A stretch of 64,000 bases of DNA from Octopus vulgaris. Lineage: Eukaryota. The notes under the pieces were generated by a model, which was not told the origin of the DNA, ran no database searches, and saw only the letters and a program-made list of their open reading frames with translations. Below are positions 6,724 through 13,446 of the stretch, one piece after another; positions within the stretch are counted from its first letter, which is position 1, and each line of letters opens with the position of its first letter. A program made the translations under genes and the position numbers. The stretch is from contig OX597815.1 in NCBI GenBank assembly GCA_951406725.2, positions 185,194,001-185,258,000 of the forward strand, written 5' to 3'.

Positions 6724-7555
6724 TGTATGTATGTATGTATGTGTATGTATATATATATATATATATATATATATATATATAGATAGATATAATATATATA
6801 TATATATATATAGATAGATATATATATATATATATATATATATATATATATATATATATATATATATATATATATATAGAGAGAGAGAGATATATATATA
6901 TATATATATATATATATATATATATATATATATATATATATATATATATATATAGAGAGATATATATATATATATATATATATATATATATATATATATA
7001 TATATATATATATATATATATATATATATATATATATATATATATATATATATAGATATATATATATATATATATATATGTATATATATATATAGATATA
7101 TGTATATATATATATAGATAGTATATATATATATATATATATATATATATATATATATATATACATATATATATATATATATATATATATATAATAATAT
7201 ATATATATATATATATATATATATATATATATATATATATATATATATATATATAGATATAGATAGATATATATATATATATAGATATATATATATATAT
7301 ATATATATATATATATATATATATATATATAGATAGATATATATATATATATATATATATATATATATATATATATATATATATATATATATATATATAT
7401 ATATATATATATATATATATATATATATATATATATATATAGATAGATATATATATATATATATATATATATATATATAGATATATATATATATATATAT
7501 ATATATATATATATATATAGATAGATATATATATATATATATATATATATATATA
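6724..7555. repeat. Long (TA)n microsatellite with GATA/GA interruptions
   Basis: Direct reading. Confidence 0.97.
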
Positions 7556-7571
7556 TTTATTATATAGAAGG

Positions 7572-7622
7572 AGCTTCTACAGGACTAGTACTGTTTCATT
7601 CAAGAGAAATCTTCAGGAAGCT
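7572..7622 (-). ncRNA. Type-I hammerhead ribozyme, family E
   Basis: Exact reverse complement of 13310-13360. Confidence 0.8.
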
Positions 7623-9882
7623 ATTTAACAAGAATTGTATTAGCATTTATACATTTAGAGGAGTGGTGGTGGGGGACTTTTTGGGGGTAGGCATAGCGCA
7701 AAATATCATACTTGGGGGAGTGGTCAAGGTAATAAAAAAATAAAAAAATAAAAAAATAAAAAATAAAAAAATAAAAAGATAAAATAAAAGAATAAAAATA
7801 AAAATAAAAAATATAAAAAATATAAAAAATATAAAAAATATAAAAAAATAAAAAATATAAAAAATATAAAAAATATATATAAAAAATATATATAAAAAAA
7901 TATATAAAAAAATATATATATAAAATATATATATAAAAAATATATATATAAAAAAAGGGGGGATAGAGTTATAGGTAAATAAGGAGATTCTCACTTATAC
8001 CTATACACACATGTATACGTATCTACACACACATACGCACATACACATATATCTACACACACATATATATATATATATATATATATATATATACATATAC
8101 ATACCTACACATACACACATACATACATACAAATATACATATACATATATATATATATACAATCCAATACAGGCCCATTCCCTAATTTTAATTTTATTAT
8201 CTTCATTTATTACTTTTGTTATCTTTGATCGCTAAGGCTAAGAATCCTGGCAATAGCTGCTTGTCCATTTGTCTGTCTACTAGAAGGCAAGTACTCATTC
8301 CCGCACGCACACTCATTAGCACGTACATTCACCCATTCGTACACTCATACACATACACGTACGCACGCGTTATATTCATACATACAAACATCTACATACG
8401 TTCACGTATATACACATACGTACTCGTACCTACAGATTCGTGTCTACACTTTAGGAGGCTAGTCTATACATATACACCAATAAATATACATATATATATA
8501 TATATATATATACCCGCATATACATACACACACACACATATATACTCCTACATACAGATACATACCTATATATATATATATATATATATATATATATATA
8601 CATATATACATATATATATACATACATACACATACATACACATACACACATACACACACATACATACACATATATATACATACACAAACATATATACACA
8701 CACATATATATACATACACACATACACACATACATACGTATACATACCTACATACATCTATACATCCATACTTACATGCATTTATACGCATACACACACC
8801 CATCTATATATATATATATATATATATATATATATATACACACTCACACATACATATACAAATCTACGCACACACATACATACATACACGTATACGCATA
8901 CACGCACATACACATATACATGCGTACCCATACACGTGCACACACGCACGCGCATCCATATAAATACACACACACACATATATATATACACGTGTGCAAG
9001 CATACATACATACTCATACGCGCACACATACTTACAAATACATATATGCACACACTTACACACATATATATACATACACATATACATGCATACATACATA
9101 TATTCATACATACACACACGCACTCATATATATATATATATATATATATATATATATATATATATATATATATATACACATATATATACATACATAGACA
9201 TATATACACATACATACACATACACATACGTACACACACATATACACATATATATATATATATATATATATATATATACACATATACGCATACATATATA
9301 CACATATACATACATATACATACACACACACATAAATATATACATATACACTGATACACATACCCATACATACACATGCATATACTTATATTACTACATA
9401 CTCACATATATAGACATATATACATATACACACATACATATATACATGTACATACACATACGCATGCATATATATATATATATACATACATATATATACA
9501 CATATATATATATATATATATATATACATACATACACACACACACACACATACATATACACATATACATGTATACATACGCAAAAATGATACGCATATAT
9601 ACACATACACACACACAGACAGATGCATATACATACATATATATATATACAAACTACATATCTATATAAATACATACATGATACACATATACACACACAT
9701 ATATATACATTCATGCATATACATATACAAGTATACATACACAAACATACACACACACGCGCACACATACATATACACACACACACATATACAAATACAT
9801 ACATACACACATACACACACACATACATATATATATATATATATACATACATGTACACATATACATATGTATATATATATCA

Positions 9883-10095
9883 ACAAGGGGGGTAAAGTTA
9901 ATTAGTTATTAATCAATTTCATCAAGTGTTCAGTATGTAAAGGGACCATTATTATTTTGAGTAAACAATGTTAGAGGGAAAAAAATTCTCTAAGTAGTGG
10001 AAGAGGCTAAAAAACTTTATTGGCTGCTATTTCTAGAAAGTTTAGTATGTGGCAAAGTAATTTATTTTATTTTCCTAAGCCCTAATTATATAATA
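9883..10095. mobile_element. Fragment of the 558-bp unit family with an internal inversion (mirrored at about 10880-11092)
   Basis: ggtaaagttaattagttattaatcaatttcatcaagtgttcagtatgtaaagggaccatt matches 36454-36511 directly; 10010-10085 matches 36543-36610 in reverse. Confidence 0.75.
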
Positions 10096-13000
10096 TTTTA
10101 TACATACATACACATACATAAGCACATACATTTACACATACATATGCATATACATATATACACATATACATACAAACACATATACACATATACACACACA
10201 CACACATACAAGCACATACATATATATATACATATATATACACATATATATACACATATATATATATATATATATATATATACATGCAAACATATATACA
10301 TATATATTTTTTTACATGCATACATACACACACACACACATAATACATGCGTATATTCCTACTGTACCCATGCATTTCTATACATATATACATACATACA
10401 TACGACACATATACAAGCGTGCACATATAATATGCGTGCACATATAATATGTGAAAGGTCTTAGGAGAAAAGGTAATCGGGGTGCTAGGGGAACAGCACC
10501 GATTACCTTTTCTCCTAAGACCTTTCACATATTATATGTGCACGCATATTATATGTGCACGCTTGTATATGTGTATCGTATGTATGTATGTATATATGTA
10601 TAGAAATGCATGGGTACAGTAGGAATATACGCATGTATTATGTGTGTGTGTGTGTATGTATGCATGTAAAAAAATATATATGTATATATGTTTGCATGTA
10701 TATATATATATATATATATGTGTATATATATGTGTATATATATGTATATATATATGTATGTGCTTGTATGTGTGTGTGTGTGTATATGTGTATATGTGTT
10801 TGTATGTATATGTGTATATATGTATATGCATATGTATGTGTAAATGTATGTGCTTATGTATGTGTATGTATGTATAAAATATTATATAATTAGGGCTTAG
10901 GAAAATAAAATAAATTACTTTGCCACATACTAAACTTTCTAGAAATAGCAGCCAATAAAGTTTTTTAGCCTCTTCCACTACTTAGAGAATTTTTTTCCCT
11001 CTAACATTGTTTACTCAAAATAATAATGGTCCCTTTACATACTGAACACTTGATGAAATTGATTAATAACTAATTAACTTTACCCCCCTTGTTGATATAT
11101 ATATACATATGTATATGTGTACATGTATGTATATATATATATATATATATATGTATGTGTGTGTGTATGTGTGTATGTATGTATTGGTATATGTGTGTGT
11201 GTATATGTATGTGTGCGCGTGTGTGTGTATGTTTGTGTATGTATACTTGTATATGTATATGCATGAATGTATATATATGTGTGTGTATATGTGTATCATG
11301 TATGTATTTATATAGATATGTAGTTTGTATATATATATGTATGTATATGCATCTGTCTGTGTGTGTGTATGTGTATATATGCGTATCATTTTTTGCGTAT
11401 GTATACATGTATATGTGTATATGTATGTGTGTGTGTGTGTGTGTGTGTGTATGTAGGTATGTATGTGTATATATATGTATGTATATATATATATATATGC
11501 ATGCGTATGTGTATGTACATGTATATATGTATGTGTGTATATGTATATATGTCTATATATGTGAGTATGTAGTAATATAAGTATATGCATGTGTATGTAT
11601 GGGTATGTGTATCAGTGTATATGTATATATTTATGTGTGTGTGTATGTATATGTATGTATATGTGTATATATGTATGCGTATATGTGTATATATATATAT
11701 ATGTATATATATATATGTGTATATGTGTGTGTGTGTGTGTATGTGTATGTGTATGTATGTGTATATATGTCTATGTATGTATATATGTGTGTGTGTGTAT
11801 ATATATATATATATATATATATATGAGTGCGTGTGTGTATGTATGCATATATGTATGTATGCATGTATATGTGTATGTATATATATGTGTGTAAGTGTGT
11901 GCATATATGTATTTGTAAGTATGTGTGCGCGTATGAGTATGTATGTATGCTTGCACACGTGTATATATATATGTGTGTGTGTGTATTTATATGGATGCGC
12001 GTGCGTGTGTGCACGTGTATGGGTACGCATGTATATGTGTATGTGCGTGTATGCGTATACGTGTATGTATGTATGTGTGTGCGTAGATTTGTATATGTAT
12101 GTGTGAGTGTGTATATATATATATATATATATATATACATATATATAGATGGGTGTGTGTATGCGTATAAATGCATGTAAGTATGGATGTATAGATGTAT
12201 GTAGGTATGTATACGTATGTATGTGTGTATGTGTGTATGTATATATATGTGTGTGTATATATGTGTGTGTATGTATATATGTGTATGTATGTGTGTGTAT
12301 GTGTGTATGTGTATGTATGTATGTATGTATATATATATGTATATATATATATATATATATATATATATATATATATAGGTATGTATCTGTATGTAGGAGT
12401 ATATATGTGTGTGTGTGTATGTATATGCGGGTATATATATATATATATATATATGTATATTTATTGGTGTATATGTATAGACTAGCCTCCTAAAGTGTAG
12501 ACACGAATCTGTAGGTACGAGTACGTATGTGTATATACGTGAACGTATGTAGATGTTTGTATGTATGAATATAACGCGTGCGTACGTGTATGTGTATGAG
12601 TGTACGAATGGGTGAATGTACGTGCTAATGAGTGTGCGTGCGGGAATGAGTACTTGCCTTCTAGTAGACAGACAAATGGACAAGCAGCTATTGCCAGGAT
12701 TCTTAGCCTTAGCGATCAAAGATAACAAAAGTAATAAATGAAGATAATAAAATTAAAATTAGGAATGGGCCTGTATTGGATTGTATATATATATATGTAT
12801 ATGTATATTTGTATGTATGTATGTGTGTATGTGTAGGTATATGTATATATATATATATATATATATATATATATATATATATATATGTGTGTGTAGATAT
12901 ATGTGTATGTGCGTATGTGTGTGTAGATACGTATACATGTGTGTATAGGTATAAGTGAGAATCTCCTTATTTACCTATAACTCTATCCCCCTTTTTTTAT

Positions 13001-13309
13001 ATATATATTTTTATATATATATTTTATATATATATTTTTATATATATATATTTTTTATATATATTTTTTATATTTTTTATATTATTTTATATTTTTTATA
13101 TTTTTTATATTTTTTATATTTTTTATATTTTATTTTTTATTTTTATTTTTTTTTATTTTTTTTTTATTTTTTTATTTTTATTATTTTTTTTTTTTTTTAT
13201 TACCTTGACCACTCCCCCAAGTATGATATTTTGCGCTATGCCTACCCCCAAAAAGTCCCCCACCACCACTCCTCTAAATGTATAAATGCTAATACAATTC
13301 TTGTTAAAT

Positions 13310-13360
13310 AGCTTCCTGAAGATTTCTCTTGAATGAAACAGTACTAGTCCTGTAGAAGCT
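13310..13360 (+). ncRNA. Type-I hammerhead ribozyme, family E
   Basis: agcttc-CTGAAGA-t ttc tctt gaa t-GAAA-cag tactagtc ctg-TA-gaagct: 6-bp stem I, intact core, 4-bp stem III, predicted GUA cleavage after 13354. Confidence 0.82.
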
Positions 13361-13446
13361 CCTTCTATATAATAAATTAATTTTACTCTGCTATGTATTG
13401 AGTACCTTACTTACTGTGGTTAACCCCGAATCAACCCGGGAACTAC

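Follow-up and report, generated by a model that had tools for sequence, protein, structure and literature searches.

A 5.9-kb palindrome in the Octopus vulgaris genome consists of two inverted, 5'-truncated copies of a young Penelope-like retrotransposon

We analysed a stretch of 64,000 nt from the genome of Octopus vulgaris (assembly GCA_951406725.2, contig OX597815.1, positions 185,194,001 to 185,258,000), referred to below as the window. At positions 7555-13446 it contains a palindrome with a total length of 5892 nt, in which the 3' end of a young Penelope-like element (PLE) is present twice, as 5'-truncated copies placed back to back, each with a pseudo-long terminal repeat (pLTR) that carries a hammerhead ribozyme motif. 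The features of the palindrome, together with a related mini insertion further downstream, are the following (UTR, untranslated region; RT, reverse transcriptase):

6724..7554, no strand: left (TA)n target tract, whose interruptions differ from those of the right tract
7555..10496, minus strand: tail-less arm, an inverted 5'-truncated PLE copy with 3' UTR and pLTR up to the internal end site CTATATAATAAAT
7572..7622, minus strand: type I hammerhead motif of the tail-less arm, 51 nt, identical to its partner motif
10487..10496, no strand: centre, an 8-nt spacer plus AG microhomology, directly past the post-stop C-rich tract of longer copies
10495..13446, plus strand: tail-bearing arm, a 5'-truncated PLE copy with a 2.7-kb microsatellite-rich 3' UTR, pLTR and tail
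10881..11116, plus strand: fragment of a repeat of another family within the 3' UTR, mirrored at 9859-10094 and 78-86% like 36422-36639
13281..13287, plus strand: TATAAAT, putative TATA box, 29 nt ahead of the putative transcription start AGCT (13310) and kept in older subfamilies
13310..13360, plus strand: type I hammerhead motif of the tailed arm, with predicted cleavage after 13354
13378..13446, plus strand: PLE tail, 69 nt, bounded by two putative RT start sites
13447..14580, no strand: right (TA)n target tract
22307..22507, plus strand: mini insertion of an older subfamily, 201 bp, both arms ending at AGCT (+1) and joined via that self-complementary 4-mer

A sequence-only reading of the window had reported a 5.9-kb palindrome with inverted arms and an extra tail on the right, lying in a short contig between two assembly gaps, and all of this holds. 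The left end at 7555 is mirrored by 13377, and the paired arms span 7555-10486 and 10495-13377. When 7555-10487 is globally aligned to 10488-13400 in reverse complement, 2838 positions match, 20 are substituted and 130 are gap columns, 23 of which are the overhang of the tail. The differences are confined almost wholly to microsatellite and homopolymer tracts, with none over 795 non-repeat sites. The tail is present on the right end only and measures 69 nt, and the gaps lie at 6624-6723 and 14845-14944. The centre consists of an unpaired spacer of 8 nt (10487-10494) and a 2-nt AG overlap, and this junction occurs a single time in the genome. Both arms start about 25 nt past the stop codon of an open reading frame (ORF), a position judged from longer copies, and the tail-less arm aligns to a natural unit at locus L050 from unit position 5262 to 2353.

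The hammerhead together with the tail served as query for the animal's own genome (2.8 Gb), which led to the parent element. Of 187 candidates 40 were scored, and 37 of these matched at 100% identity. Most copies also carry the window's purine-pyrimidine (RY)-rich sequence upstream of the hammerhead and tail, and the cargo of the palindrome therefore belongs to the element. It had been taken for mere low-complexity RY DNA and is instead the common 3' UTR of a PLE family. At three loci the tail continues straight into an ORF. The unit at L050 is 5.19 kb long and comprises, in this order, a pLTR, an RT frame of 501 aa, an endonuclease frame, a C-rich tract, a 3' UTR of 2.7 kb that equals the window cargo, a second pLTR and the tail. 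Pseudo-LTRs arising from partial tandems are seen at L050, L051 and L056 and in the C1 and C7 tandems, with a period of 5.19 kb. One natural copy, L129, is in frame and holds an open RT-endonuclease frame of 680 aa with YRDD, LVY...SYIG, R, E and N; the window copy itself is without an ORF. The sequence-only reading had rightly proposed a retro-insertion into (TA)n of an RNA that ends in a pLTR with a hammerhead and is related to the mini element. Its source is no stand-alone long non-coding RNA or giant non-autonomous family, however, as the window holds a 5'-truncated copy of an ORF-bearing PLE and its centre junction is unique.

Among 8000 scored candidates the PLE protein has 1407 homologues at E<=1e-20, mostly of about 700 aa. 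The Pfam families RVT_1 and GIY-YIG were each matched in one of seven aligned members; the query protein itself gave no direct Pfam match. Two PDB sequence searches yielded 0 matches in one case and a lone unrelated match at E 0.31 in the other. Protein P0001 carries RWR and DKT, and RW[KR] is found in 119 of 121 proteins and DK[TS] in all 121. The endonuclease frame, C-terminal to the RT and of the GIY-YIG type, has CNCHDKTTC (CxCx5C), CDLCISE (CxxC), LLNK and CMH (CxH), with no CCHH.

RWK, DKT in place of DKG, CxCx5C, CxxC/CxH and the lack of CCHH are the marks that define the Hydra clade in Craig et al. (2021, PMC8557442), and judged by these motifs the family belongs to the Hydra-clade PLEs. 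The RT with C-terminal GIY-YIG domain, RW(K/R), the type I hammerhead in the pLTR and the insertion into (TA)n are likewise shared with the Hydra-clade elements described there, among them Hydra-1_Obim of Octopus bimaculoides (2507 bp). The features of endonuclease-positive (EN+) PLEs are present, including an inverted 5'-truncated partner and a tail at one end. In difference to the Hydra-clade elements in that paper the unit is 5.19 kb long and not below 3 kb, owing to the 2.7-kb microsatellite-rich 3' UTR, but the short length is given there as a tendency and no strict criterion. Further differences are a tail of 69 nt versus 30-40 nt and the RT and endonuclease being out of frame in most copies. 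The family is distinct from Hydra-1_Obim, as the hammerhead differs in sequence in a comparison by eye. The Naiad clade has an N-terminal endonuclease, a CxC linker and no canonical hammerhead, whereas here the endonuclease is C-terminal and a hammerhead is present. As a separate observation, members have inserted into TA tracts of, or beside, earlier copies (L142:7591-7734, L050:9394-9901 and L119:7818-8202), and the TA-rich 3' UTR of the family furnishes its own insertion target.

The hammerhead of each arm had been called intact, which stands for the sequence motif and fails for the Rfam score and for folding against shuffles. The motif has the core CUGAAGA/GAAA, a stem I of 6 bp, a stem III of 4 bp, a GUA cleavage triplet and a weak stem II of 3 bp plus a U-U pair. 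An Rfam scan of the window gave 0 matches at gathering score, hammerheads included, and the lone-strand fold is no better than that of shuffled sequences (z -0.78). The hammerhead is thus intact as a motif, with putative self-cleavage. Loop III of the motif at 13310-13360 contains the self-complementary ACUAGU, which would permit dimer cleavage, and dimer cleavage is known for minimal PLE hammerheads. Since the whole hammerhead is retained in the arms, the RNA template appears to have been uncleaved.

The ends of the insertions were compared in two sets of loci. In the tail-selected set (37 loci and the window, 38 insertions) an inverted arm is found in 31 insertions, and all 31 inverted arms begin at unit position 5260-5266, tail-less. 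The other seven have no inverted arm in view; of these, one abuts a gap and another reaches the limit of the fetched stretch. All right ends in this set read ACTAC then ATA, and both outer ends share AT microhomology with the target. Genome-wide, the exact tail end running into TA occurs at least 2447 times and the exact tail-less end into TA at least 1355 times. The ORF-selected set comprises 54 loci picked by an ORF motif, blind to the tail, and was tallied by hand. Here, 26 loci are simple two-armed insertions whose two ends are both visible, and every one of them combines a tailed with a tail-less end; the longer arm is the tail-less one in 12, the tailed one in 13 and neither in one. At L151 and L155 the tail-less arm exceeds one unit in length. 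Single arms make up another 13 loci (7 tail-less, 6 tailed), the tail-less ones with clean (TA)n or flank junctions. The remainder are two complex loci (L140 and L153, the latter being two adjacent insertions) and 13 loci with an end outside the fetched stretch or missing. On contig C1 (0-99 Mb), the first 100 tail ends and 61 tail-less ends gave 39 outward pairs of tail/tail-less type, one tail/tail and none tail-less/tail-less (p 4e-11 versus free choice), a count in which a few long pairs may be chance neighbours. As a side observation, L140 and L141 (G000:C3:32110270-32130000) hold one chimeric junction with captured local flank, which is present twice, inverted, and ends once without and once with the tail; it is possibly a re-mobilised composite.

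These ends also bear on a caveat raised in the sequence-only reading, namely that the palindrome might be a fold-back read or assembly artefact derived from one real arm. Its position in a short contig between two gaps, its self-complementary (TA)n flanks and the unique junction would fit such an origin; in four public runs no joints were listed on the ORF end or the UTR start, and the stretch around the window centre was without cover in two DNA runs. Every part of a read that folds back should appear in mirror image, but the left arm has no tail and stops precisely at the end site of the family, and the two TA flanks differ in their interruptions, unlike those of a mirrored artefact. The same architecture with varied centres is moreover found at 30 other tail-selected and 26 ORF-selected loci, including 215-bp mini palindromes with ordinary unique flanks. 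We regard an artefact as very improbable; the caveat is much weakened by the unmirrored flanks and the family-specific left end, though not closed by reads.

The inner breakpoints of the two arms are independent. For 29 insertions, obtained from the 31 by excluding two tandem-containing loci, the offset between the arms ranges from -2263 to +2984 nt. Nine of the 29 centres are symmetric within 20 nt, where 0.5 would be expected by permutation (0 of 100000), counting L048, whose offset was set to zero by hand and whose two ends lie within one TA tract. The long copies other than the window have centres that are all different; L164 is a loop-free palindrome joined at AGGCCT, and several centres (L047, L059) contain short templated duplications, which are typical of microhomology-mediated joining. 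The two arms of an insertion share their alleles: at three polymorphic sites, mismatches amount to 1 of 42 within insertions versus 532 of 1119 between insertions (0 of 5000 permutations).

The mini insertion at 22307-22507 had been said to have the same two ends and the same tail asymmetry as the long palindrome, and this is correct. Such minis are frequent, as 21 of the 39 mixed pairs on C1 are at most 216 bp and 13 are 211-216 bp long. We inspected 23 minis, consisting of 19 of those 21, one 278-bp pair and three from elsewhere; because they were selected for shortness, it is the length pile-up that is the unbiased evidence. In none of the 23 does an arm extend beyond the A of AGCT. The end falls between +1 and +6 in 18 of the tail-less and 15 of the tailed arms, and six minis are joined via a loop-free AGCT overlap. 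The A of AGCT sits 29 nt after the TATAAAT that is conserved across subfamilies, and 29 nt is the usual distance between TATA box and start for polymerase II. Based on this spacing and on where the arms end, AGCT (+1) is likely the transcription start, and the minis would be run-off copies of short pLTR transcripts. No link between a TATA box and a hammerhead was found in the open-access literature. Hammerhead cleavage was considered as the origin of the mini centre and rejected, as the arms stop at +1, away from the cleavage site.

The abundance of the minis, six of 23 with the same centre, raises the alternative that the long palindrome and the minis are a self-propagating non-autonomous family that is mobilised as a palindrome, comparable to miniature inverted-repeat transposable elements or retrozymes, and some minis may indeed be re-mobilised. 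However, the centre of the long palindrome occurs once and those of the other long copies all differ, while the minis show diagnostic bases of several subfamilies, old and young, which points to a repeated origin from pLTR transcripts. The tandem hammerhead array of retrozymes is also absent from the palindrome. Such a family therefore has very little probability as an explanation. Non-LTR retrozymes (bioRxiv 10.64898/2026.07.22.740005) share the type I hammerhead, the non-coding nature and the derivation from a PLE pLTR with the Octopus element. They are described there as tandem direct arrays, with two or more hammerhead units, whereas the Octopus element and its minis are inverted pairs.

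We propose that the palindrome is one insertion of this young Hydra-clade PLE and that it probably arose by twin priming. In this model a (TA)n tract would be cleaved on both strands by the GIY-YIG endonuclease of the element, and the two 3' ends so exposed would serve as primers for separate complementary DNAs (cDNAs) on a single RNA, one of them starting at the tail end and the other 69 nt upstream of it. The two antisense cDNAs would proceed toward the 5' end of the RNA and then stop; those of the window would both have stopped about 25 nt past the stop codon, probably because the RNA ended there or because both stalled at the same place. Their 3' ends would be joined through microhomology, after which each would prime the second strand of the other. 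On a short transcript from a terminal pLTR both cDNAs would reach the end of the template at +1 (AGCT), which would produce the 215-bp mini palindromes, and loss of one cDNA would leave a single arm, tailed or tail-less. As each unequal arm contains sequence that is absent from the other, neither arm was copied from the other. Since arms with private sequence nonetheless share alleles, two cDNAs from one RNA are the simplest account, which the AGCT overlap supports, because two ends can anneal by it but one strand cannot fold on it.

The sequence-only reading had instead suggested that the element was copied back on itself. In such a scheme a single tail-primed cDNA snaps back to serve as its own template, the product is resolved at the internal site by the endonuclease or by end joining, and later deletions at the centre make the arms unequal. 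Fold-back accounts for the shared alleles, the near-symmetric centres (9/29) and the one-tail rule, and a 5-bp stem closed by an 8-nt loop can be drawn at the window centre. It also has precedent, as palindromic junctions are taken as self-priming in PMC3846280 and the tail is assigned to endonuclease-mediated resolution in PMC8557442. On its own, however, it cannot yield a longer tail-less arm or a lone tail-less arm. A secondary deletion would be needed wherever the tail-less arm exceeds the tailed one in length (12 of 25), including L151 and L155, and complete loss of the tailed arm for the seven single tail-less copies. The extra centre bases in the window are part of the tail-less arm, the opposite of what a fold-back primed at the tail would leave, and the loop-free centres AGCT and AGGCCT are poor hairpin primers. 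We therefore consider fold-back copying an unlikely origin.

Several points weigh against twin priming. The mechanism is read from finished insertions alone, with no intermediate observed, and the shared alleles fit twin priming, hairpin copying or later gene conversion alike. The complex locus L140 contains a tail/tail unit and the arms of the mini L195 differ at a diagnostic base. Breakpoints in microsatellites are resolved only to about 20 nt, and one of the symmetric cases is the hand-zeroed L048. No read or contig was seen across the window centre. Finally, the in vitro experiments of PMC11167929 report no strand preference for the two RT starts.

The palindromic architecture of PLEs has already been described. 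PMC8557442 states that the 5' end frequently carries an inverted 5'-truncated copy and that the tail is frequently confined to one end, and for Penelope of Adineta vaga head-to-head palindromic junctions are reported (PMC3846280). The Octopus insertions share the inverted 5'-truncated copy, the head-to-head arrangement, the palindromic junctions and the single tail with these (PMC8557442, Fig. 2 legend; PMC3846280). Where the two papers treat such insertions they cite self-priming or endonuclease resolution and give no counts, whereas the arms, alleles and ends of the Octopus copies point to two cDNAs. For Poseidon PAc of Anolis carolinensis, in vitro work showed cleavage and extension of both strands of the target, two reverse transcription starts at the limits of the tail and no requirement for hammerhead cleavage; the protein is predicted to form a dimer (Frangieh et al., 2024, PMC11167929). 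The AT-rich target is shared with the Octopus family, and so would be the two tail-bounding RT starts, the uncleaved RNA template and the cutting and extension of two strands. Poseidon PAc belongs to another clade, and its start sites lie inside the ORF and are without target homology; the account of the two starts in that paper draws no link to inverted insertions. A twin-priming model for PLEs was not found in the open-access literature (subscription papers were outside the search), nor was a PLE structure.

In the Octopus PLE the second start would be fixed at 69 nt from the first, so that the same RNA stretch would be copied twice and a palindrome would result. In L1 twin priming, a single RNA is reverse-transcribed from both ends of the target site, and microhomology joins the resulting cDNAs so that the 5' part of the insertion is inverted. 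There, in contrast, the second primer uses variable internal sites upstream of the first cDNA, and the arms do not overlap.

In most copies a C run in WYNPP separates the RT frame from the endonuclease frame (L050:5650-5665, G000:C9:33222645, and 175 other sites). Of the 176 exact matches to the junction patterns, 4 have five C, 138 have six C and are out of frame, and 34 are in frame. Only two of the 34 in-frame matches reach the ORF start; both are old (88% and 90%) and have no open frame through the ORF. By a rough measure, the in-frame form makes up 27-41% of the summed contig depth in four public runs. Assembly error as the cause of the break was rejected, as the short C run has the larger depth share in all four runs. 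Variants were counted in 73 out-of-frame copies of 93-100% identity. Those shared by at least three copies are 34 synonymous and 11 non-synonymous in the endonuclease (singletons 22 and 55) and 37 and 11 in the RT (singletons 59 and 88). Judged from these counts, the endonuclease is under purifying selection despite the frame break. Among 115 proteins with the WxNP motif only the query terminates right after it, so the break is absent from distant homologues. A convincing frameshift-stimulating structure was not found around the junction (hairpin after the C run z -1.64, wider window z -0.30), nor was an RT-endonuclease frameshift in PLEs in the open-access literature, subscription papers being outside that search as well. 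Either six-C masters use a -1 frameshift, or unseen in-frame masters lose a C in most daughters through RT slippage, or the endonuclease is helped in trans. The frame break under selection could be a recoding site.

A more general model would be that PLEs integrate by obligate asymmetric twin priming through a two-RT complex that cuts both (TA)n strands and copies one RNA twice from two fixed starts, that every two-armed insertion is one-tailed, that thousands of 215-bp hammerhead minis arise in this way from short pLTR transcripts and that, in the Octopus family, the endonuclease is made by a -1 frameshift on the C run. Taken as a whole this is possible, but we hold it with considerable doubt.

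The window contains further repeats. A second palindrome (97%) of a different hammerhead family lies at 35909-38507, with a unit of about 560 bp arranged as a partial tandem. It has minimal type I hammerhead motifs at 36771 (minus), 37329 (minus) and 37629 (plus), and each of its arms includes a copy of about 500 bp of flanking sequence; a portion of its unit is nested in the PLE 3' UTR. At 54670-54861 there is a near-perfect 192-bp palindrome (95%) of another repeat, related to 21939-22112. Related hammerhead-core motifs (CTGATGA/CTGAAGA ... CGAAAC) are found at 49459 (plus) and 63095 (minus) in a repeat that follows (TAA)n, a candidate PLE end. An abundant repeat of 180-240 bp forms short tandems at 14965-15529, 17137-17390, 31226-31470, 33325-33904, 44373-44978, 51466-51894 and 58583-59013, and a second repeat family of 430 bp occupies 209-1038, 3556-5602 and 38156-38692.

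The mechanism behind tandem and inverted PLE insertions is stated as unresolved in PMC8557442 and PMC11167929. A young family of high copy number gives counts that separate the models, namely the one-tail rule, the longer arm being either one, the same template for both arms and the run-off at the putative start. It also supplies two named start sites and a target with which PLE integration can be tested in vitro. Thousands of self-made palindromes are implied in one genome, and what makes the finding valuable is the family, as a system for testing PLE integration, rather than the size of the palindrome.

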